Source of the DNA: an uncultured Planctomycetales bacterium
GTDB taxonomy: Bacteria > Omnitrophota > Gorgyraeia > Zapsychrales > JBDRMG01
Length of the DNA stretch: 64,000 bases
Direction of reading: 5' to 3'
Assembly (NCBI GenBank): GCA_964478715.1
Contig: CAYZIY010000011.1
Location: forward strand, 1,980 to 65,979
The notes below the pieces were generated by a model. It was not told the origin of the DNA. It made no database searches and worked only from the letters and a program-made list of their open reading frames with translations. The translations under genes and the position numbers were made by a program. Positions 50,715 to 59,190 of this stretch are shown here, in pieces. Numbering within the stretch: position 1 is the first letter of the stretch; every line of letters begins with the position of its first letter.

Positions 50715-52215
50715 GATAAGTAAGTATTTTTTGGTTTTGAATCTGTTCCAGCTGTGATAAATATAAAAGCAGAGGAGGTTTTATCCACCAAATGCTCTTT
50801 CGATAATTTTTACTGACCAAACAATGCATTAACCGTGGAACAATATAGGTGCTTTTAATAAAATGAGATCGCCCCTTCCTGACAAAAAGTAAATAGTATA
50901 AGAGCGACCTTAGAAATTCTGATCGACATGCTTGGGGATCAATACCCATAGCATGCTTTTGTTCAAATGGAATATGGGCAAATTGAGGGTAAGCGTGATA
51001 GATTGTATCTGTATGCAAATTACTGTCCATCCGCACATGAATAGGTAGAGAAGATAAAAATGTGCGCAGATCGAAATCAAGATAGGGGCTGTAAATACAT
51101 GGGATATCGCTTAAAATTGCGTATGGCGATAAACTGATTTCTCGCCTTCTTTTGTTCCAGAAGTAAAAAGAGCTGATCGGATGCGGTGTGTCAACATGAT
51201 TTTTTAGCTCAGAGACCAAATGATCAGTAGCGCAATCGATATGCATACGTTTATAGGATTCCGGAGTTAGTATGAGTTGAGCGATGTCCTCACCCATAAC
51301 CCAGTATTGAAATAATATCTTTGATAGTTCTTTTAAGCGTTCTTCTTTGAAATTTTCAATTTGTTCAGGTACAAATGTTTTCCAATCGCTGCCAAGCCCG
51401 TCGTAAATCAATTTTGTTTTACCTTTGAGAAAATCGGCTAAGATAAGTATCTGGGCATGTTCATCAGTACACATATTGGTTATGAAATTTTTTCTGATTT
51501 CATTTTTGAAGAGCTTCACTTGTTGTTTAAGCGTAATATGCTCTATCTTAAGCTCTGAACATAGGTGTTTTGCAATTCTGACATCCTCATCGGAACGTGG
51601 CGGGTAATGATCATGGGTTACGCAGAATTTCGGTTTATAACCAAGTCTATTGAGTTCTAAGAGAATGTGCCTTGAGTCTCGACCACCGCTTAAAGGAATG
51701 ACAAAATTATTATCTTTTGGCAATCGTCGTTTCATGGACTGCTGGAATAAAGATGCGTATCTATAAACGGCATCATGCCTGGTTATTTGTAGGCATTTTG
51801 TTTGAGCGCACTGTCCTTTTAATACCAAGCCGTCTTTATTCCATTGAAATTTAACAATAGGCGGTAAGGCGCGTATGTATTTAAAGGGAGTATCGTTACC
51901 AATGAAAAAACCTAATCGGATAAATACCGATAAAGCTTTGTAGTCTATTTCACGGGATGCTCCCTCCTCAAATAGCTTCCATATCGACGGTGAGAGGCCG
52001 ATTTCACCATTATGGCAATAGTAATACAGCGGATAAAATCCAAACGGATCGTTTTCAACAGTAAGAGTATTGCCATCCCAATGCCATTTAGCATAGACAC
52101 CATCTGGTTTTTGCCCTGATGAACGGGGAATCTCGTGCCCTAAAAGACAATCAGGAGAGCCTTTTACTTCGAATTGGCCGTTTATTTTTTTTGCATGGAA
52201 ATATGATTTATTCAT
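50704..52215 (-). CDS. asparagine synthase-like amidotransferase (exosortase-locus-associated type)
   Basis: PP-loop IPLSGGRDSRHIL; no N-terminal Cys glutaminase nucleophile. Confidence 0.65.
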   Translation of the reverse strand: MNKSYFHAKKINGQFEVKGSPDCLLGHEIPRSSGQKPDGVYAKWHWDGNTLTVENDPFGFYPLYYYCHNGEIGLSPSIWKLFEEGASREIDYKALSVFIRLGFFIGNDTPFKYIRALPPIVKFQWNKDGLVLKGQCAQTKCLQITRHDAVYRYASLFQQSMKRRLPKDNNFVIPLSGGRDSRHILLELNRLGYKPKFCVTHDHYPPRSDEDVRIAKHLCSELKIEHITLKQQVKLFKNEIRKNFITNMCTDEHAQILILADFLKGKTKLIYDGLGSDWKTFVPEQIENFKEERLKELSKILFQYWVMGEDIAQLILTPESYKRMHIDCATDHLVSELKNHVDTPHPISSFYFWNKRRREISLSPYAILSDIPCIYSPYLDFDLRTFLSSLPIHVRMDSNLHTDTIYHAYPQFAHIPFEQKHAMGIDPQACRSEFLRSLLYYLLFVRKGRSHFIKSTYIVPRLMHCLVSKNYRKSIWWIKPPLLLYLSQLEQIQNQKILTYHDC

Positions 52216-53191
52216 GGCTTGAGTGTTTTTCTAACAATATGTTGCTTTCATTAAGATTCGACATACAAAATATGAATTTTGTTAGAAGAAATCTCCATAT
52301 TTGTCTGTTGATTGGTTTTCGTATCAGCGCTTTACACAAAAGACTTAAAGAATCGCTATATTCACCCGCTTGATACAAACGCGTTGACCAGTGATAATAG
52401 CTTTCAGCCATTAGGTGCATTTTCTCAAAGAACCCCGTGGATAAATCTGGCCTTTCAATATCTTGACACGTGACGTCTTTAAGTTTGTGTTCTCTCGCAA
52501 ATTGGCGCATTCTTTCAGCGGATTGAGTTTGCCTGATACTGCTTGTAATGGAAATAGAATGGAGATTGATCCTTCGATAACACAATAATTGATCCAAACA
52601 AGCAAAGTTTTGGGTTTCCGAAGATCTAAGATAAAAATCGTAATCTGGCGCGCAATACAAGCCATCACGATAGAAATGCACAGATTCAAAATTTATTTTG
52701 CGAAACATAATCGAGCTATGGATAAGCGGATTACAAGACCTGAATGAATTTTTGATATCACTATCGCTTAACGGGGATTTTATTTCTGAAAAAACTTTTC
52801 CATTCTCATTAATCAGATAGCAGTAAGTCGCGCAAAGGGCGATGTCGGGATGTTTGTCTAAGAATTGAACTTGTTGTTCCAATTTTTCTGGCATCGCGAT
52901 ATCATCCGAATCGAAATTGGCAATGTACTTTCCTTGCGCATGAGAGATCGCTGTATTGCTGGCTGTGGCCGGACCAAGATTTTGATCGTGCCGAAATACT
53001 TTGATTTTTTCAGGATACTTTTGTTCATAATCTCTGGCGATTTTAAGGGTTTTGTCTTTTGAGGCATCATCAACGATAATTAACTCAAAATCCTGAAATG
53101 TCTGAGACAAAAGGCTCTCAATGGCCTCTCTCATGAACCTCGAGGCGTTATAGGCTCCCATCACTACGCTTACTTTTGGTTTTTTCTCCAT
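52208..53191 (-). CDS. glycosyltransferase family 2 with C-terminal extension (divergent paralog C)
   Basis: KVSVVMGAYN...IIVDDASKDKT, DSDD; C-terminal YYHWSTRLYQAGEYSDSL block shared with paralogs A/B. Confidence 0.75.
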   Translation of the reverse strand: MEKKPKVSVVMGAYNASRFMREAIESLLSQTFQDFELIIVDDASKDKTLKIARDYEQKYPEKIKVFRHDQNLGPATASNTAISHAQGKYIANFDSDDIAMPEKLEQQVQFLDKHPDIALCATYCYLINENGKVFSEIKSPLSDSDIKNSFRSCNPLIHSSIMFRKINFESVHFYRDGLYCAPDYDFYLRSSETQNFACLDQLLCYRRINLHSISITSSIRQTQSAERMRQFAREHKLKDVTCQDIERPDLSTGFFEKMHLMAESYYHWSTRLYQAGEYSDSLSLLCKALIRKPINRQIWRFLLTKFIFCMSNLNESNILLEKHSSHE

Positions 53192-53216
53192 GGCTGTTTC
53201 CGTTTATTCAACAATC

Positions 53217-53247
53217 CTGGCCAAGTCTTTATCCAGAAGCTCCTGAT
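53217..53247. repeat. 31-bp direct repeat (left copy), 29/31 identical to 54640-54670
   Basis: tggccaagtctttatccagaagctcctgatt vs tggccaggcctttatccagaagctcctgatt; corresponds to the 3' coding end of the SNase-fusion gene. Confidence 0.6.
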
Positions 53248-53276
53248 TTAGCAACCATCCGTAGGCCAGAATTTCT

Positions 53277-54419
53277 TTACATAAAGCGTCTTGGACTACT
53301 CCAGAGCTGATCAAGGAAGTTTTTCCAGGGAAGTATTTTAATCCCCTGAATAATTCTCGGCCGTTTTTCCAGGCACGCAACGACATAATGCTTGATTCTT
53401 TTCTCTTCTTTGAGCGCCTTCATTCCTCTTAGGTCTCTTGGAGAGATATTGCCCTTTGCCTTGGCTTCCACGGCAAGGTTGTCATTTATTATAAAATCAA
53501 CCTCGTATCCGGATTTGGACCGCCAATAATGAAGATCGCCCAAATTATGATAGTCGACAAACGTTTTCAGCTCGTGCGCCATATATGTCTCAAACGCGTC
53601 TCCGAATTCCGGCGACTTTTCTTTTATTTCCGGCCGATTTTGCAGGTATCGCACCACCCCTGCGTCGAAAAAATAAAATTTCGCGGTTGAAGTGGGCTTT
53701 CGTTTTTGACTCTTTTTCCATGCCGGGACATCAAACCCGATAAGTGTATCGCGCAAAATCTGAAAGTACTCCTGGACCGTACTGGCGGGTACCTGGGCGT
53801 CATTGGCTATATTGGCATAATTGATCAACAAGCTGTTGCAGGCGGCCGCAACCTGCAGAAACCTGCTGAATGCCGGGACATTTCTGACCAGTCCCTCGGC
53901 TGCGACCTCTTCTTTTAAATAGTTTCCGGAATAGGCCTTCAAATCCTGCTCAGGGGAGTCAGAAAAATAAATCGAAGGAATCAAACCGTTATTCAGCGCT
54001 TTGCGTAAATCGAATTTTTCCTTAAGTTCACGGTAAATAAACGGATGCAGGTTTGCCGAACGCGCCCGGCCGCCCAAAAGGTTGACGCCTCCTCTGCGCA
54101 GTTTTCTGGCGCTTGATCCTGTCAACAGAAAATGAATTCTTTGCTTTTCAATAATCCGATGTACTTCATCAAGCAGAAAAGGTAATTTCTGAATTTCGTC
54201 AATTATAATGATCTTTTCTTTGGACCGTATTTCCTGTTCAAGCCTTTTTGGCTCGCGGCTTAAAGTCAAATAGATATCGTTGTCCAAGAGATCATAGACG
54301 CGGAATTGTTTCAAGCTATGGGCTATCAGCGTGGATTTTCCCGTCTGCCTCGCGCCAAAAAGAAATAGTGACTTGCTCTTTAACGCTTTTAGGACGTCAA
54401 TCTGACGGTCGATATACAT
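53277..54419 (-). CDS. AAA+ ATPase with C-terminal DUF4143 / PD-(D/E)xK-like domain (COG1373 family), second copy
   Basis: Walker A GARQTGKST, Walker B IIIDEIQ; C-terminal GYEVDFII...VEAK. Confidence 0.7.
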   Translation of the reverse strand: MYIDRQIDVLKALKSKSLFLFGARQTGKSTLIAHSLKQFRVYDLLDNDIYLTLSREPKRLEQEIRSKEKIIIIDEIQKLPFLLDEVHRIIEKQRIHFLLTGSSARKLRRGGVNLLGGRARSANLHPFIYRELKEKFDLRKALNNGLIPSIYFSDSPEQDLKAYSGNYLKEEVAAEGLVRNVPAFSRFLQVAAACNSLLINYANIANDAQVPASTVQEYFQILRDTLIGFDVPAWKKSQKRKPTSTAKFYFFDAGVVRYLQNRPEIKEKSPEFGDAFETYMAHELKTFVDYHNLGDLHYWRSKSGYEVDFIINDNLAVEAKAKGNISPRDLRGMKALKEEKRIKHYVVACLEKRPRIIQGIKILPWKNFLDQLWSSPRRFM

Positions 54420-54538
54420 AAAATCCTCCTAGGTTAAATGACATATATGTTGTTGATTATCATGACATACAACGATATAGTTGTCAAATAAAATATGCTT
54501 AAAATTATCCTCGATCTCCATTCTTCTGTTTTTATCCA

Positions 54539-54610
54539 GGGACATACCCCGAATCAGGTAAAGGTGTGTCCCTCAGGGGTCATACCAACACATAAATCGG
54601 GGTATGTCCC
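54539..54610. repeat. 72-bp palindromic element (14-bp perfect inverted arms gggacataccccga / tcggggtatgtccc with internal sub-repeats)
   Basis: Read directly; lies between the ATPase gene and the right-hand direct repeat. Confidence 0.6.
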
Positions 54611-54625
54611 TGAGCCTGAAGTAGG

Positions 54626-55435
54626 TTACTCCACTATTCTGGCCAGGCCTTTATCCAGAAGCTCCTGATTGAGAAGGCGACCATGGCTTAAAATTGTTTC
54701 TTTATCCGTCTCCCCTTTCAAATACCAGAGATCCACAATGTAGCGGCCGAATTTGCCGGCTTTATACGAGCGGATAACAACACCGCCCTCAGAGAGGCAA
54801 TCCTCGACAAATACTTTGGCTTGGCCGCCTTTTTTCGTCCCTTTTTCCGGGCAGTTAATGCCCCGCAAACGCACTTTGTGCTCCATTTTGGCCTTGAAAC
54901 CGACATCGATATCAAGAACAAGCGTGTCGGCATCAACAACCCGGGCTACCTGTGCCGCATAGGTATATAATTTTTGGTTAAGATCTCTGAGCCGGGGCCC
55001 GTCATTTTTGTTTGTGGCCCCGGCTTCACATCTGTTTTCGTAATAATTATTGCGGATTCTCAATCGCAGTTCATGTGAGCTCCACTGATTGAGCGCGGCA
55101 CTTTGGATATAGAAGGAGCGCTCTTTTCTGTCGGCCACATACAAAAGGGCGGCATAATGCGACCAATTCAGCGGATGTCCCTCGATTTCATCTTTAAATC
55201 CGTCCGGATATTGCCGGAAAAAACGAACGCATTTTTCCAGCGTTCCTCTGGATGCGCCCGCATCGAGCGCGATATTCTTAATGACTTCTCCGCTTTTACG
55301 GGTGTAACCATAAACAGACTCTCCGATGATCCAGTAGGCATTGAGCGTCTGAAGACGCTCATCATCGTTAGCTGTGTACTGCTCGACTTTCTCCAGTCTT
55401 TTTTGAATATCTTTAACTAGTTTTTGATAAGACAT
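54626..55435 (-). CDS. nuclease-domain fusion protein: YhcG/DUF1016-like N-terminal domain + staphylococcal nuclease (SNase/thermonuclease) domain
   Basis: C-terminal VVDADTLVLDI...KVRLRGINCPEK SNase catalytic signature; N-terminal ~130 aa resemble the DUF1016 N-domain (uncertain). Confidence 0.55.
   Translation of the reverse strand: MSYQKLVKDIQKRLEKVEQYTANDDERLQTLNAYWIIGESVYGYTRKSGEVIKNIALDAGASRGTLEKCVRFFRQYPDGFKDEIEGHPLNWSHYAALLYVADRKERSFYIQSAALNQWSSHELRLRIRNNYYENRCEAGATNKNDGPRLRDLNQKLYTYAAQVARVVDADTLVLDIDVGFKAKMEHKVRLRGINCPEKGTKKGGQAKVFVEDCLSEGGVVIRSYKAGKFGRYIVDLWYLKGETDKETILSHGRLLNQELLDKGLARIVE
54640..54670. repeat. 31-bp direct repeat (right copy) at the 3' end of the SNase-fusion gene
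   Basis: See left copy. Confidence 0.6.
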
Positions 55436-55456
55436 AAGACGCAGAATGCTTGAATG

Positions 55457-56071
55457 CTAAAGCAAAATATGTTCAAGTTTTCTTTTTACGCATAAACGAA
55501 TTTTATCGTCTTTTATTTTCCTGACCCACGTACGAGCTGATTTAAAACAAAATTTTTTTCCTAAATACAGCTCCGGAAAATGACCAAATTGTTTCTTTTT
55601 TCTTGTGGATAAATATAAACAATCAACTAATGCCTTCTCCGGCTCAGCTATAAGGAATTTCCCCGTCTTTTTGTACCAGCTGAAACCCTGGAAAAATTCA
55701 GGACATATTTTGTGAATCTGAAAAGTTCCCAAAGAGGTGCTAACGGATCGACTATGAGCGGTTGAAGCCAAAGTGATAACTTGTGGTATTTGCTCCACAA
55801 TGCCGTGAAGGTGCAAGGCGCTCAGGAAAGAGACATAGGCGCGGTGTTTATCAAACAAGAGAGGTATCATTTGATAGGGGCTTACATTTCGTTGATCCCC
55901 TTGGGACCATACGCCTCTGTAAACACGCTGAACCAATCCCTGTTTTTCTAAGTGAACCAATGACTGATTGATAGCAGACGCGGATTTTCCTGAAAGAGAC
56001 ACAAGTTCTCTAGTCGCAAATACAGGTCTCTCTATTTTCTTAATAAAAAACATTAAAGACCGTTTCTCCAT
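55457..56071 (-). CDS. AbiEi-family antitoxin-like transcriptional regulator (type IV TA)
   Basis: N-terminal wHTH-like segment; immediately downstream of, and co-oriented with, an AbiEii-like gene. Confidence 0.45.
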   Translation of the reverse strand: MEKRSLMFFIKKIERPVFATRELVSLSGKSASAINQSLVHLEKQGLVQRVYRGVWSQGDQRNVSPYQMIPLLFDKHRAYVSFLSALHLHGIVEQIPQVITLASTAHSRSVSTSLGTFQIHKICPEFFQGFSWYKKTGKFLIAEPEKALVDCLYLSTRKKKQFGHFPELYLGKKFCFKSARTWVRKIKDDKIRLCVKRKLEHILL

Positions 56072-56075
56072 ATCA

Positions 56076-56852
56076 CTATCCCAATTCTTCTAAAAAACCA
56101 ATTGTTTTTAATTTGATTTCATCCCAGTTATTTTCATTAGTGTACAAAGATTGATCTTCCGCGCTGAAATAAGCGACGACTGAATCTCGAAATTGTTCAT
56201 AGCTGACTTGATACACATTTTCCGAAGCTTTTTTCAATTTATCCGGGTTGACTTTGAGTTTTCCCTCTATCTCGGAATCATATTGTGAATTCAGAATATA
56301 CAGATCGAAAATATCCCTGGCCTGAAGCTCTTTGCGGTTTATCAGGGCATCAATTTTTTGTGTGATGGCCGATGAAATTTTGTAATGGGATATTAATAAT
56401 GGCGCCAATCGATAATGCCGGAGAATGGAGCTGGAGACAGATTCAACTTCTGCTTGGCCGCGAAAGCCCCTCCGGGAAAACTCAATTTTTGTAAACAAAT
56501 CTTCGCCTGAGGAGTTCAACAAATGAATCTTAAATCGTTGCGTTGTTTTTGTTTGTTTAGCGTATTTCATATCAGGCGGAATCAACCGCTCAACACCAAA
56601 CGAATTCAGTATGTCATGAAATGAAGCCGCGGTGAGAATATCCATGACAGTATCTTTGATTTTGTAAACCGCAATATCGCAAATATCCAGATCCATATCT
56701 TCTGAGTAGCGGAAGCTTTTAAAGAAAAATCTTAAATTTGATCCGCCTTTAAGCGCGAAGAAACTCTGCTTAACTTTCCTGGAAAACAGCCGAAGGAATT
56801 CCAGATGAAAGATTTCTCGTAAATCCAGATTATTGTATGATTTTGCGTTCAT
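56076..56852 (-). CDS. AbiEii/AbiGii-family nucleotidyltransferase toxin
   Basis: LKGGSNLRFFF...SEDMDLDI pol-beta-like NTase motifs (GS...D.D). Confidence 0.55.
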   Translation of the reverse strand: MNAKSYNNLDLREIFHLEFLRLFSRKVKQSFFALKGGSNLRFFFKSFRYSEDMDLDICDIAVYKIKDTVMDILTAASFHDILNSFGVERLIPPDMKYAKQTKTTQRFKIHLLNSSGEDLFTKIEFSRRGFRGQAEVESVSSSILRHYRLAPLLISHYKISSAITQKIDALINRKELQARDIFDLYILNSQYDSEIEGKLKVNPDKLKKASENVYQVSYEQFRDSVVAYFSAEDQSLYTNENNWDEIKLKTIGFLEELG

Positions 56853-56969
56853 ATAATGTATTATAACTTAGTTATGACTAAACAACAACGCATAATTAAA
56901 ATTATTATATATTCATTATGTTCAGGGACAACCATTTATCTGGTTCAGGATACGTCGCTGGTCTTAATT

Positions 56970-57923
56970 TTATCTATTTTCCATTTCGCGAAAGCATTTC
57001 ACCGTATATCTAAGACCTTCCTCAAAATTGACCAGAGGTTTATATCCGATAACCTTACCCGCCTTCGAAATATCCGCATGGGTTTTAAAGACATCGCCGG
57101 CGCGGACATCTAGATGCTGAGGTTTGATATCTTTTCCGATGATCTGATTAAGCAGATCAACGAGTTCTAAGACGGTATGATCCCTGCCATTGGCTACATT
57201 GAGAACCTCATGCTTGATGCCGGGTGTGGTGGCGGCCAGGATATTGGCTGAGACAACATTATCGATATAAGTGAAATCGCGCGACTGCTTGCCGTTTCCG
57301 AAAATCGGCGGTTGCTCATCATTGAGAATACTGGTCGTGAATTTGGGAATCACGACCGCATATTCATCATCCAGGGCCTGCCGGGGGCCGAAGACATTGA
57401 AATAGCGAAGGCACACGGTCTCAACGCCAAAAAATTCGGCGAAGATCCGGCAGTAATATTCGCCGGTTAATTTAGATAGCGCATAGGGCGAAATCAGTAG
57501 CGGAAGCTGATCCTCTTTTTCGGGGAATTGATCCGTATCGCCATAAATCGAACTGGATGAGGCCAGAACAAACCGTTTAACCTGATGCTTGGCGGCCGCC
57601 TGAAGCATAAAGAGCGTTCCATCGATATTGACATGATTATAGGTCAGCGGATCTTTCATGGATTTGGGCACTGAGCGCGCCGCCGCCTGATGCAGTACAT
57701 AATCAATGCCCTCGCAGGCCTTGTCGCACACCAGAGCGTCACGGATATCGCCGCGGATCAGTTCGAATTTTTCGATGGATAATTTTTTAGCGAAAGCAAG
57801 ATTTTCTTCTTTTCCGGATGAAAAATTATCCAATACACGGACAAAATCATCACCCTGAATTAGTTTCTCAGTGATATTGGAGCCGATGAACCCGGCTCCC
57901 CCTGTGACGAGATAACGTGCCAT
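56970..57923 (-). CDS. NAD-dependent epimerase/dehydratase (UDP-sugar 4-epimerase, WbpP/CapD-like)
   Basis: TGGAGFIGSN Rossmann motif, YALSK catalytic dyad region. Confidence 0.8.
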   Translation of the reverse strand: MARYLVTGGAGFIGSNITEKLIQGDDFVRVLDNFSSGKEENLAFAKKLSIEKFELIRGDIRDALVCDKACEGIDYVLHQAAARSVPKSMKDPLTYNHVNIDGTLFMLQAAAKHQVKRFVLASSSSIYGDTDQFPEKEDQLPLLISPYALSKLTGEYYCRIFAEFFGVETVCLRYFNVFGPRQALDDEYAVVIPKFTTSILNDEQPPIFGNGKQSRDFTYIDNVVSANILAATTPGIKHEVLNVANGRDHTVLELVDLLNQIIGKDIKPQHLDVRAGDVFKTHADISKAGKVIGYKPLVNFEEGLRYTVKCFREMENR

Positions 57924-59190
57924 GGGGCATCCTTTCTTTAATCAGATGATTCCTTATTAATGTTCGATAGAGCCTTTGAAATTGATCGGCCACCTGTGGC
58001 CAGGTGAATTTTTCTAAAACTTTTTGATAGCCGCAGCGGCCCAGCCGCGTTCGCATTCTTTTGTTTTTCAATAAAGTCGTGATTTGATCGGCCAGTTCAT
58101 GATCATTTTCATACGCATAAAGCAGACCGTCTTTGTTTTCATCCACAACAGAACCCGGAGCCGAATTTCGGGTGGTGATCACCGGTTTCTGGCAGGCCCA
58201 GGCCTCAAGCAAAACGATCCCGAAAGATTCGCTGACCGATGGTAAGACTAAACAGTCGCTGGCATGGCAAATTTCATTCTTTTGGGATTCACTGAAATGA
58301 TTGATGATCAAAACACGCTCCCGGTCTTTGGATTTCAGCGTTTTGATTTTATTTTTTAATGCTTTTTTGTAATTTTCACTCAAAGATCCGGCCAGGATGA
58401 GTCTGGCTTTGGGGATTTTTTCACAAACGAGCGCGAAAGCCTGGATCAAGCCATCAATGCCTTTTTCTTTTGACAAGCGGCCCATATAGAGAATGACAGG
58501 ATCTTTTTTCAGTCCATAGATCGATCGAAAGTCGTTTGTTGGCGGTACGGGAAAATCCGAAAAATCGATCGCCGGAGAGATAACCCTGATTTTATGGGGA
58601 TCAATGCCTTTTTGAATCAAAAAATTCTTTTCAAATTCGGTGAGCGCGACCACGCAATCGCAATCTTGAAGGGCCGTATAAATAAAGGGATTTTTAACCC
58701 ACTGATCATGAATATGCAAACAGGGAATAATCACATAAGGAAATTTGCGGATGCGATGCGCCAGATAGGCCCAGATAGTGCTGGCATTGCAGGAGTTAAT
58801 ATTGCAGACCACATCGGGCTTATGCGCGAGGATTGCCTGGATGCTTTGGGGGACGACTCCTCCTCTTTGCATCATCGCAAACCAATCTTTCAAAATCGCG
58901 CGAGATAATCGGTATCCGCCTCTGATTTTCGGTAAATGTTTAAACACGAACTGTTGAATTCTTTTCGACGGAGGAAAACGCCGTATTTTAACGCCGTTTA
59001 AGGTTTCATAGCTAAGCAAAGAATTGATTTGGCCATTGGGATTGCGCAGTTGATTAATCGTCAAAGCTTTGGCGGTAAAAACAGTGACATCCTCTCCCTT
59101 TCGGGTCAGGTGTTCGGAGAGTTTCTTAAGATGGATTTGATTCCCTCCGATGGATGGATGGTAAAGATGGCTTATGTGCAGTATTCTCAT
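57868..59190 (-). CDS. glycosyltransferase family 4
   Basis: LPSVSESFGIVLLEAWACQKPVITT. Confidence 0.7.
   Translation of the reverse strand: MRILHISHLYHPSIGGNQIHLKKLSEHLTRKGEDVTVFTAKALTINQLRNPNGQINSLLSYETLNGVKIRRFPPSKRIQQFVFKHLPKIRGGYRLSRAILKDWFAMMQRGGVVPQSIQAILAHKPDVVCNINSCNASTIWAYLAHRIRKFPYVIIPCLHIHDQWVKNPFIYTALQDCDCVVALTEFEKNFLIQKGIDPHKIRVISPAIDFSDFPVPPTNDFRSIYGLKKDPVILYMGRLSKEKGIDGLIQAFALVCEKIPKARLILAGSLSENYKKALKNKIKTLKSKDRERVLIINHFSESQKNEICHASDCLVLPSVSESFGIVLLEAWACQKPVITTRNSAPGSVVDENKDGLLYAYENDHELADQITTLLKNKRMRTRLGRCGYQKVLEKFTWPQVADQFQRLYRTLIRNHLIKERMPHGTLSRHRGSRVHRLQYH

Follow-up and report, generated by a model that had tools for sequence, protein, structure and literature searches.

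Inside an exopolysaccharide (EPS) locus of an uncultured Planctomycetales bacterium (GTDB phylum Omnitrophota), 3.65 kb between a glycosyltransferase gene and a sugar epimerase gene are occupied by genes of the nuclease, ATPase and toxin-antitoxin (TA) type. The stretch, positions 53204-56852, belongs to the window analysed here, a 64,000-nucleotide piece of one contig. An earlier, sequence-only reading took it for a single defence islet, in which a nuclease fusion and its ATPase neighbour might form a two-gene system. Here we ask whether these genes constitute one unit or several, and which of them belong to the locus.

Gene content of the stretch

All genes of the stretch are on the minus strand according to the ORF list, and the four ORFs and their domains were confirmed as an AbiEii, an AbiEi, a fusion of a DUF1016_N and a staphylococcal nuclease (SNase) domain, and an AAA_14/DUF4143 ATPase (Table 1). 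The flanking genes are also as first described. The left edge at 53204, however, is not the end of the ATPase. It falls on the stop codon of a previously unnoticed remnant, 72 nt long, of another fusion allele (relic B). ORF and repeat scans found no integrase, transposase or terminal repeats flanking the stretch.

Table 1. Coordinates of the features in and around the stretch (positions in the window)
Feature	Position	Strand	Remarks
NAD-dependent epimerase	56970..57923	-	Pfam Epimerase 1.1e-56
Promoter-like site TTGTCC-16-TATAAT	56904..56931	-	upstream of AbiEii; consensus scan, 10/12 matches
AbiEii	56076..56852	-	258 aa; first gene of AbiE pair
AbiEi	55457..56071	-	204 aa
DUF1016_N-SNase fusion, allele A, intact	54626..55435	-	269 aa
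DUF1016_N helical domain, putative DNA-binding module	55037..55351	-	aa 29-133
Compact SNase (OB-fold) nuclease domain	54629..54964	-	aa 158-269; native end after GLARIVE
Imperfect palindrome/hairpin (repeat I1)	54537..54612	.	76 nt; starts 14 nt past fusion stop
ATPase-module promoter region TTGACA-17-TG-CATGAT (predicted)	54459..54493	-	consensus scan; also marks module 5' boundary
AAA_14 + DUF4143 ATPase (COG1373)	53277..54419	-	380 aa
3'-end relic of second fusion allele (B)	53204..53275	-	last 23 codons and stop (...KEILAYGWLLNQELLDKDLARIVE, stop); 72 nt
GT2 glycosyltransferase	52208..53191	-	Pfam 3.9e-39; first strain-specific gene

The domain calls for the AbiE pair proved right, and the pair behaves as sporadic TA/defence-type cargo inside the EPS locus. 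AbiEii matched its family in Pfam (8.3e-15) and PADLOC (8.4e-15) and holds all four of the motifs defined in PMC3985639, i.e. I/II (KGGS...R..DMDLD), III (K-x6-R, here KIDALINR) and IV (RDIFD). AbiEi, an antitoxin or wHTH regulator, was matched by PADLOC (AbiEi, 2.1e-24 over 163 of 199 profile positions), with scores below cut-off for NCBIfam TAA_AbiEi (47 bits against 150) and Pfam AbiEi_4 (3.8e-4). It starts 4 nt past the AbiEii stop codon, and the fusion follows 21 nt further on. The promoter-like site upstream of AbiEii could drive AbiEii, AbiEi and the fusion jointly; it is a candidate only, as the region has no more such sites than shuffled sequence would give.

The ATPase was correctly described as an AAA+ protein with a C-terminal PD-(D/E)xK-like DUF4143 motif (Pfam AAA_14, 5.4e-21, and DUF4143, 1.8e-30; PADLOC PDC-S01, 4.9e-52), since its translation contains Walker A (GARQTGKST), Walker B (IIIIDEIQ) and the EVDFII...VEAK motif. 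It has more than 8000 homologues, the top matches being 79-83% identical and from other taxa. Copies that are 81-83% identical are solitary and stand in unrelated contexts, and nucleotide similarity to their loci runs from 45-75 nt upstream of the ATG to the stop codon. By these comparisons the ATPase is an independent mobile single-gene unit with a predicted promoter of its own, and its suggested status as defence/TA-type cargo agrees with its behaviour as a sporadic insertion in the EPS locus. The function of the COG1373/DUF4143 family is listed as unknown (PMC3424549). A defence role for genes of the PDC-S01 or PDC-S02 type is putative here and unproven, because in the one such phage assay found in the literature four candidates gave E. 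coli B protection from T4, T5 or T7, and neither representative is listed as one of them (bioRxiv 10.1101/2024.09.26.614923).

The fusion architecture is real, with Pfam matches to DUF1016_N (1.3e-14, aa 29-133) and SNase (9.2e-07, aa 187-268) and the previously quoted motif VVDADTLVLDI...RLRGINCPEK present in the translation; the PADLOC PDC-S02 profiles cover its N-terminal half only (residues 2-145; down to 2.6e-18). An AlphaFold2 model has a mean pLDDT of 90, and the N-domain resembles the DNA-binding domains of ParB/KorB. Loss of the SNase catalytic residues was not seen: in an alignment of 30 family members the equivalents of D21, R35 and R87 are invariant (30/30) and that of E43 is retained in 29; at the D40 equivalent, 22 members have N and 8 have D. 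The metal-binding and catalytic residues retained in the window protein are D170, R189, E197 and R231. Activity or specificity may nevertheless differ from those of SNase, because Asn stands at the D40 equivalent and the C-terminal helix with Y113 and Y115 is absent. Inspection of the translation by eye found no signal peptide or hydrophobic segment at the N-terminus, and among SNases its nearest relatives are small nucleases encoded by phages. About 950 full-length relatives cover both domains at E<=1e-30 (clusters at 50% identity), and no paper treating this architecture was found in the literature. The fusion belongs to a large uncharacterised family, with an inferred nuclease role.

The hairpin downstream of the fusion folds at -48.4 kcal/mol (z -5.9), occurs once in the window, and has neither a T-run nor an Rfam match; a terminator function or a role in RNA stabilisation is possible. 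Relic B adjoins the ATPase stop codon, and 12 nt separate its end from the GT2 ATG. With fusion A it forms a direct repeat (D1, 85% identity over 48 nt), and over 22 codons the comparison gives pS 0.74, pN 0.13 and pN/pS 0.17 (Fisher p 4e-6), the pattern of a long-diverged allele that was, on codon evidence, under purifying selection in the past. Its presence would record turnover at the junction, with at least one replacement or deletion event.

Position of the fusion at the polysaccharide-locus border

The fusion belongs to an Omnitrophota clade whose members are 39-64% identical to it. In nine loci (the synteny rests on 9-10 loci, two of them close relatives), the fusion is the last collinear gene of a conserved block (export protein, then chain-length determinant, the locus ATPase, tyrosine kinase, epimerase and fusion), and strain-specific genes follow directly. 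In NCBIfam the block is best matched by pepcterm_export, ChnLen, ATPase and TyrKin, all with scores below the curated cut-offs. A collinear epimerase with 73-75% identity to that of the window is present in L187, L190, L191, L193, L194 and L002. In four close-clade loci (L187, L191, L193 and L194) the epimerase immediately precedes the fusion, with no cargo; in L190, L192, L001 and L002, cargo lies between the two. Fusion spacing to biosynthetic genes is tight in L187, L191 and L194 (-4 to 23 nt). Protein order in the window matches that of five of these loci up to and including the fusion, with nothing orthologous beyond it, and an orthologue of the GT2 gene is absent from every related locus compared. 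L194 and L002 are 70-87% identical through the fusion (itself 87%), and their similarity stops at the stop codon of that gene. Pairs with the most similar fusions also have the most similar kinases (L002-L194, 87/85%; window-L187, 64/67%); over all pairs, fusion identity correlates weakly with epimerase identity (rho 0.33) and not with kinase identity (rho 0.11). Two further close-clade loci have the fusion elsewhere in a glycosyltransferase cluster (L189) and in an island of uncertain position (L188).

Cargo at the junction is sporadic and comprises AbiE, MNT-HEPN, PIN, divergent DUF4143 ATPases and a Y1 transposase. In the wider family, 78 of 80 GTDB loci are not at EPS loci, the neighbours being TA, defence and housekeeping genes; the 133 immediate neighbours in these 80 loci include no Pfam family more than three times, and there is no conserved partner. 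That genes of the stretch are conserved core EPS genes in related genomes holds in part, for the fusion: by synteny the fusion clade appears to be a fixture of the EPS locus and not random cargo, whereas AbiE and the ATPase are sporadic. Of the proposed single defence islet, the domains and the TA and ATPase cargo in an EPS locus stand, but the fusion is resident in the conserved block.

A probable mosaic origin and its alternatives

We consider it probable (roughly 0.6) that the stretch combines, as a mosaic, three units of different history, in which the fusion is resident and a probable stand-alone nuclease. The fusion would close the conserved 5' part of an XrtA/PEP-CTERM-like EPS locus and would work as a single chain, the ParB/KorB-like helical N-domain binding nucleic acid and the compact cytoplasmic SNase domain cutting it. 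In architecture it is a YhcG/DUF1016 nuclease with the PD-(D/E)xK domain exchanged for SNase. Its most likely role would be that of a nuclease, restriction-like or for selfish maintenance, that is passed on together with the locus. The AbiEii-AbiEi genes would be a type IV toxin-antitoxin/abortive-infection module inserted into the epimerase-fusion junction, probably now supplying a promoter from which the fusion would be co-transcribed, and the ATPase a gene that moves independently and carries a promoter of its own. The junction would be both a landing pad for the cargo types listed above and a recombination boundary.

An en bloc insertion of one mobile four-gene defence island between epimerase and GT2 would suit four co-directional genes unrelated to sugar metabolism; the four genes are arranged alike in an independent assembly from this sample (L081), and the fusion adjoins a reverse-order AbiE pair in L188 and L025. 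Such an origin is very unlikely, as the fusion occupies exactly the same place in the four cargo-free relatives, the ATPase module is separately bounded and differs in distribution, relic B represents a fusion gene already beside GT2, and the flanks hold none of the integrase, transposase or terminal repeats sought. A two-gene defence system, in which the ATPase senses or loads and the nuclease executes, is quite unlikely, and as an obligate arrangement it was not borne out. DUF4143 is not among the recurring neighbour families, an intact DUF4143 ATPase being just one of the 133 neighbours (in L002); an adjacent ATPase is absent from 6 of 11 close-clade loci, four of which have no ATPase or TA genes at all; the nearest relatives of the window ATPase are solitary; and L194 does not have the ATPase that L002 carries, yet their fusions are 87% identical. 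The window ATPase also has its own predicted promoter, with the strong hairpin between it and fusion A. Fusion-adjacent ATPases are mutually 22-42% identical; those beside close-clade fusions come from very different subfamilies (22-27% identical), which argues for independent insertions and not for a co-evolving pair. On the other side, three loci have a same-strand DUF4143 ATPase directly upstream of the fusion, with gaps of 16 nt in L002, 76 nt in L189 and 105 nt in L192, and L037, from another phylum, has one as a degraded pseudogene; the window ATPase stop abuts relic B; and in L188 a chimeric ORF couples part of a DUF1016_N domain with the C-terminus of a DUF4143 protein. Four of 11 upstream positions is unexpected, because such ATPases make up about 5% of genes in these flanks by rough estimate (binomial about 1e-3, post hoc and rough), and this adjacency, commoner than the chance expectation, hints at a link. 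The mosaic model treats the repeated adjacency as a hot-spot coincidence.

The border position itself could reflect function. By analogy with homing or shuffling aids, the fusion might be a recombination-promoting or cassette-policing nuclease that binds DNA where the conserved and variable parts of the locus meet and whose DNA breaks stimulate or restrict exchange of the strain-specific cassette. The same position in nine loci, the end of similarity between related genomes at the fusion stop codon and relic B at that very point, 12 nt from the first variable gene, are in its favour, as are the 17-fold enrichment of DUF1016-family genes beside programmed-inversion targets (PMC9881135), their embedding in type I R-M loci (PMC3424549) and the reported hypervariability of Omnitrophota polysaccharide cassettes (bioRxiv 10.64898/2026.05.20.726742). 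The breakpoints need not be caused by a nuclease, however, because a conserved gene beside a variable region automatically ends the similarity; no target site, repeats or recombinase are evident, experimental precedent is absent, and nearly all of the wider family lies away from EPS loci. We regard this role as unlikely. Hardly credible is an enzyme of the EPS or biofilm matrix, for instance a secreted nuclease trimming extracellular DNA. Secreted SNase homologues modulate biofilms in Staphylococcus, and the conserved position and tight biosynthetic-gene spacing would fit, but the fusion has no export signal, its N-domain resembles intracellular DNA-binding domains, its closest SNase relatives are small and phage-encoded, and the wider family keeps company with TA, defence and housekeeping genes.

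Comparison with known systems

With the AbiE type IV TA/abortive-infection system (PMC3985639), the window pair shares the DUF1814 nucleotidyltransferase with motifs I-IV, a wHTH-type AbiEi partner and tight bicistronic coupling. It differs from the regulator-then-nucleotidyltransferase order of the prototype in having the toxin first, an order common to L025 and L188, and in having the fusion as a third gene downstream. The ATPase is an ordinary member of the COG1373 AAA_14-DUF4143 ATPases (PDC-S01), with the same architecture, Walker A/B and D...ExK motifs and the same multi-copy, patchy, single-gene distribution, and nothing distinctive.

The fusion has in common with YhcG/DUF1016 proteins (COG4804; PDC-S02) the N-terminal DUF1016_N helical domain, a single-gene organisation with no conserved partner and a place inside variable loci (type I R-M operons), beside mobile or defence genes (PMC1189080, PMC3424549, PMC9881135). 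It differs in that an SNase OB-fold domain replaces the YhcG_C PD-(D/E)xK nuclease domain, and one fusion clade is fixed at an EPS-locus border. Compared with staphylococcal nuclease/thermonuclease (PF00565), the equivalents of D19, D21, R35, E43 and R87 are conserved, and identity to small Staphylococcus phage/plasmid nucleases (about 110 aa) is 40-43%. The fusion is, in contrast, joined to a DNA-binding-like domain without a signal peptide, has Asn at the D40 equivalent in its clade, and ends after the GLAxxVE helix, short of the last SNase helix.

The locus as a whole resembles capsule and EPS loci (pneumococcal cpsA-D; XrtA/PEP-CTERM) in placing an export, chain-length and tyrosine-kinase block before strain-specific glycosyltransferases and a flippase, and departs from XrtA/PEP-CTERM loci in the sub-cut-off NCBIfam scores of its block. 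We know of no described capsule or EPS locus in which a nuclease is the last gene of the conserved block, and a nuclease fixed between the constant and strain-specific halves of a surface-polysaccharide locus is an unexpected conserved position.

The four genes and the architecture of the fusion protein

Four co-directional minus-strand ORFs are bounded by a GT2 gene, the first strain-specific gene of the window, and an NAD-dependent epimerase gene of an exopolysaccharide (EPS) locus, and the G+C content of the four-gene stretch does not depart from that of its surroundings. Pfam and PADLOC matches agreed with the domains that the sequence-only reading had assigned (an AbiEii/AbiEi pair, a DUF1016_N-SNase fusion and an AAA_14/DUF4143 or COG1373 ATPase), and the peptide motifs it quoted were found in the translations. 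That reading also took the genes as one defence islet; the observation holds and the interpretation is upheld in part, for the evidence shows one resident gene and independent insertions. Neither the AbiE pair nor the ATPase stands out within its known family.

Features of the window and of related loci (L-numbers denote fetched loci with fusion homologues)
Feature	Position	Strand	Length	Evidence or remark
GT2 gene	52208-53191			downstream boundary
Relic B, second fusion allele	53204-53275			read in frame 53275-53204
ATPase	53277-54419	-	380 aa	Pfam AAA_14 5.4e-21, DUF4143 1.8e-30; PADLOC PDC-S01 4.9e-52
TGTCAT repeats	54440-54493			candidate operator
Hairpin	54537-54612		76 nt	-48.4 kcal/mol, z -5.9
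DUF1016_N-SNase fusion (allele A)	54626-55435	-	269 aa	Pfam DUF1016_N 1.3e-14, SNase 9.2e-07
AbiEi	55457-56071	-	204 aa	PADLOC AbiEi 2.1e-24
AbiEii	56076-56852	-	258 aa	Pfam AbiEii 8.3e-15
AbiE promoter	56904-56931			candidate
NAD-dependent epimerase	56970-57923			upstream boundary
GT4 gene	57868-59190			between kinase and epimerase in the window only
23S_rRNA_IVP	L187:6374-6742			
23S_rRNA_IVP	L191:6441-6794			
23S_rRNA_IVP	L192:335-694			
23S_rRNA_IVP	L194:6539-6904			
23S_rRNA_IVP	L188:5720-6115			
Hairpin and T-run	L194:7926-8001			terminator-like
AbiE pair	L025:10166-11561			reversed order
AbiE pair	L188:9036-10593			reversed order
Degraded DUF4143 ATPase	L037:1000-1532			pseudogene
Chimeric ORF	L188:10899-11456		186 aa	DUF1016_N and DUF4143 fragments
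DUF1016 N-terminal domain-containing protein	L186 (NZ_CP091939.1):39163-40152		329 aa	Leptospira noguchii plasmid

In the fusion, DUF1016_N (PF17761) was matched at 54.9 bits (cut-off 32.8) over residues 29-133 and the C-terminal half is an SNase (PF00565) OB-fold; an AlphaFold2 model gave a mean pLDDT of 90. There was no Pfam match to YhcG_C (PF06250), the PD-(D/E)xK nuclease domain with the motif E-D-E(I/L/V)K (PMC1189080), and the PADLOC PDC-S02 profiles aligned with the N-terminal half only (residues 2-145).

Residue equivalences were read from an alignment of 30 family sequences with S. aureus nuclease, whose catalytic and Ca2+-binding residues we take to be D21, D40, T41, E43, R35 and R87. 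No sequence varies at the positions of D19, D21, R35 and R87, the equivalent of E43 is present in 29/30 sequences, that of T41 is C, A or T, and the D40 position is mostly occupied by N (22/30, the window fusion included; D in 8/30). An Asn at this position might still ligate the metal. The Pfam SNase match spans profile positions 1-77 of 107, and since every aligned member (20 homologues) stops right behind the GLAxxVE helix, the short C-terminus is a family trait rather than the result of truncation. In contrast to the canonical secreted SNase, the fusion has no C-terminal helix with Y113 and Y115; inspection of the translation by eye revealed no hydrophobic N-terminus or secretion signal.

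A search of 5.8 billion proteins returned 110 relatives in which the two domains are likewise combined, the majority in metagenome-assembled genomes of Candidatus Omnitrophota. When 1.84 billion cluster representatives were searched with a profile, 950 proteins were returned at E<=1e-30 (a family of about 950 clusters at 50% identity), and the best 150 cover both domains. Most of them are of a longer form (330-360 aa) and the window fusion is of a short form. Long-type members (e.g. P0088, P0094 and P0081) carry an insert of ~75 aa between DUF1016_N and SNase (alignment columns 176-250), with a 'VDCGF' motif reminiscent of the 'IDVGF' strand of SNase; the insert may have arisen by partial duplication or may form an additional small beta domain. 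NCBIfam has no model for the fusion protein and the literature search found no paper naming DUF1016 together with SNase or thermonuclease, in keeping with the initial reading, which knew of no characterisation of it.

Small nucleases without a partner domain, encoded by Staphylococcus phages and plasmids, are the closest SNase relatives (40-43% identity to the SNase half). A phage origin of the full fusion was rejected because viral contigs and phage genomes carry almost only SNase-alone nucleases, and a plasmid origin because the plasmid candidate is distant and Pfam supports its DUF1016_N domain alone. This candidate, from Leptospira noguchii, is 22.5% identical to the window fusion over residues 46-259; its gene adjoins Rpn-family nuclease and integrase genes, its host is cultured, and the protein might offer a way to study the fusion family in a culturable organism.

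Position of the fusion at the border of the EPS locus

Synteny was read from long contigs encoding close relatives of the fusion (39-64% identity), each of which places it in an EPS or surface-glycan gene neighbourhood. The cargo-free loci L187, L191, L193 and L194 share the order Poly_export, Wzz/GNVR, AAA_22 ATPase, small ORF, AAA_31 tyrosine kinase, epimerase and fusion, after which the genes are different in every locus; L193 has three further sugar-metabolism genes before the fusion, the last being a second epimerase. No toxin-antitoxin (TA) or ATPase genes of the inserted kinds were found near the fusion in these loci, save a DUF4143 ATPase ~7 kb downstream in L194. Elsewhere the gap between epimerase and fusion holds cargo: AbiEi-AbiEii, a Y1 transposase and a PIN gene (L190); TPR, MNT-HEPN, AbiEi-AbiEii and a DUF4143 ATPase (L192); a GT4 gene and two AbiE pairs (L001); or a DUF4143 ATPase (L002). 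The exceptions are L189, with an ATPase and then the fusion within a glycosyltransferase cluster, and L188, a dense island of uncertain position.

The window is collinear through the fusion with L187, L190, L191, L193 and L194 (export 58-68% identity, chain length 48-59%, ATPase of the block 62-69%, kinase 50-67%, epimerase 73-75%, fusion 39-64%), and downstream of the fusion no orthologues were found between the window and these five loci. Between L194 and L002, identity is 70-87% up to and through the fusion (87% for the fusion itself); the similarity breaks at the fusion stop codon and is then none, 62% and ~30%. Loci whose fusions are most alike also have the most similar kinases, which is consistent with inheritance of the fusion together with the EPS locus. 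Its fixed place at the border is, as far as we have found, undescribed.

The best NCBIfam matches of the conserved block are the pepcterm families of export protein, chain-length determinant, locus ATPase and tyrosine autokinase, all below the curated cut-offs (pepcterm_ATPase 304.8 against 324.5; ChnLen 250 against 279), and on these sub-cut-off matches the block would be XrtA/PEP-CTERM-like. A neighbourhood survey covered 80 fusion loci from GTDB species representatives; 78 of them, with fusions of at most 38% identity, gave no match to the window kinase or epimerase. A metagenome scan with the GT2 protein yielded no close relative (best 54% identity over 109 aa) and no pre-insertion site.

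Several further differences were seen around the block. Only in the window does a GT4 gene separate the tyrosine kinase from the epimerase; its 3' end runs 56 nt into the epimerase gene, and its sole homologue in the related loci lies in the variable part of L193 (39.5%). Five relatives have a 23S_rRNA_IVP gene (four-helix-bundle, bAvd-like) between kinase and epimerase, which is absent from the window. The terminator-like GC hairpin and T-run in the epimerase-fusion gap of L194 end ~14 nt before the fusion ATG. The fusion there may need read-through or another promoter.

Arrivals and remnants beside the fusion

The two-gene nuclease-ATPase system proposed from sequence alone was not sustained as a family-wide pairing, since the 80 surveyed loci have no recurrent partner; some adjacency of ATPase and fusion did emerge. 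Searches with the window proteins (phmmer) found a DUF4143 ATPase in 3/80 loci and AbiE genes in a handful. When the three genes on each side of the fusion were clustered, no family occurred in more than five loci, and Pfam and PADLOC scans of 133 immediate neighbours returned no family more than three times. The neighbours include TA and defence types (AbiE, Fic, MNT-type nucleotidyltransferases, ResIII and canonical YhcG) as well as housekeeping genes.

Directly upstream of the fusion, L002, L189 and L192 have a divergent ATPase gene in the same orientation. In L037 (Marinamargulisbacteria) a long-type fusion is immediately preceded by a degraded DUF4143 ATPase that has lost its middle and retains, in different frames, a Walker A segment and its last 120 aa. 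The window ATPase precedes relic B in like manner. The chimeric ORF of L188 combines part of DUF1016_N (profile 17-83) with the DUF4143 C-terminus (114-160) and is junction debris of the families that abut in the window. The recurrent adjacency fits either a hot spot or a site preference, though it might also reflect a facultative functional link between ATPase and fusion. The fusion-adjoining ATPases are only 22-27% identical to one another (42% for the window and L192), and L194 is without the ATPase found in L002, so they are independent arrivals.

The window ATPase has the AAA_14 P-loop and a DUF4143 domain with a PD-(D/E)xK motif (GARQTGKST, IIIIDEIQ and EVDFII...VEAK in the translation). 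It has more than 8000 homologues, the best being 79-83% identical and from other taxa. The three close copies with genomic context are solitary, beside RecQ, TPR or phosphofructokinase genes, and the nucleotide similarity runs from 45-75 nt upstream of the ATG to the stop codon, with the TTGACA-17-TG-CATGAT promoter inside it; hence the ATPase is a self-contained, horizontally mobile unit. TGTCAT motifs are repeated in its promoter region (gttgtATGTCAT ... atatATGTCAT), which may be an operator, since its nucleotide sequence is conserved among ATPase loci of other genomes (81-83% identical).

The AbiEii protein (DUF1814 nucleotidyltransferase; Pfam 55.8 bits against a cut-off of 22.5) holds motifs I-IV in its translation (GGS...R..DMD, K-x6-R, RDIFD), and the four motifs are required for toxicity in S. 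agalactiae, as determined by mutagenesis (PMC3985639). The PADLOC AbiEi match covers positions 5-167 of a 199-position profile, and AbiEi is a divergent member of this wHTH antitoxin family given its 47 bits against the 150 of the NCBIfam equivalog. The regulator gene precedes the nucleotidyltransferase gene in the prototype of the AbiE type IV TA systems (PMC3985639), whereas AbiEii, the putative toxin gene, comes before AbiEi, the putative antitoxin gene, on the coding strand of the window. The reversed order is common to L025, where the pair is 59-60% identical to that of the window, and L188, both beside fusion genes. As the fusion starts 21 nt past AbiEi, it would probably be transcribed from the candidate AbiE promoter.

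A repeat search of the window detected a direct repeat of 48 nt, with one copy at the 3' end of the fusion and the other shortly past the ATPase. Read in frame, the latter site encodes ...KEILAYGWLLNQELLDKDLARIVE*, a fusion C-terminus of 23 codons and a stop, which begins at the ATPase stop codon; 12 nt separate its end from the GT2 ATG. Over 22 codons the relic differs from the intact fusion by 11.5 synonymous and 6.5 non-synonymous differences (pS 0.74, pN 0.13, pN/pS 0.17, Fisher p 4e-6); because the differences are mostly synonymous, relic B is the remnant of a different, once-functional allele. A recent target-site duplication was rejected as the source of the repeat, as synonymous sites are near saturation and pN/pS is low. 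The relic lies about as close to GT2 as the fusion does to the first variable gene in L187 (22 nt), L191 (23 nt) and L194 (overlap). The relic fits replacement of most of a resident allele B by an incoming fusion A and ATPase, perhaps with AbiE, and it also fits a tandem A-ATPase-B arrangement from which B was then lost by deletion.

The hairpin right after the fusion stop codon has 36-nt arms and no T-run. A structured RNA was rejected, with no Rfam match in 52900-57300 at E<=1, and so was a MITE or REP repeat, the hairpin having no second copy in the window and recurring, among the fetched loci, only in L081, a short contig with the same genes at 100% protein identity. An integron cassette or attC site was rejected as no RYYYAAC/GTTRRRY-like core sites were read at the palindrome ends; no integrase was found in this region of the window.

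Proposed role and comparison with known systems

DUF1016/YhcG proteins and COG1373 ATPases are among the commonest unexplained genes of defence islands, and surface-polysaccharide cassettes are a main target of phage-driven diversification. The finding of interest here is one fusion clade that appears to be inherited as part of a surface-polysaccharide locus, where conserved genes meet strain-specific ones. In two preprints, polysaccharide cassettes of Omnitrophota are described as hypervariable and as carrying mobile, restriction-modification (R-M) and TA cargo (10.64898/2026.05.20.726742, 10.64898/2026.06.07.730766). This explains the cargo, though not why a conserved nuclease sits at the border. 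Enrichment of DUF1016 genes has been seen next to recombination-driven variable genes, and in type I R-M loci too (PMC9881135).

The fusion would be a single-chain, putative DNA-binding nuclease of SNase type that is inherited with the EPS locus, and the junction beside it would collect selfish and defence genes. A speculative reading, to which we give a probability of roughly 0.15, is that this clade is a dedicated component of hypervariable Omnitrophota polysaccharide loci that binds and cuts border DNA and thereby drives or polices cassette exchange; its gene would close the conserved part and probably open the variable operon. Upstream insertions of DUF4143 ATPases could then exploit the site or modulate the nuclease activity. 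By extension, DUF1016 nucleases, including those embedded in type I R-M loci, might be accessory factors of recombination-driven variable loci and not classical defence effectors.

The ATPase is a candidate anti-phage gene only: in the one test found, eight candidates, PDC-S01 and PDC-S02 representatives included, were exposed to T4, T5 and T7 in E. coli B, and the four reported as protecting do not include these two (bioRxiv 10.1101/2024.09.26.614923). Automated defence calling would take the four genes as one islet or system, and annotation of such stretches calls for caution.

Canonical YhcG/DUF1016 proteins combine DUF1016_N with a PD-(D/E)xK nuclease and are themselves uncharacterised (PMC1189080, PMC3424549). 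The fusion shares their N-terminal DUF1016_N, but the PD-(D/E)xK C-domain is absent and an SNase fold is present; the DUF1016 N-domain can thus be joined to a nuclease of a wholly different kind.
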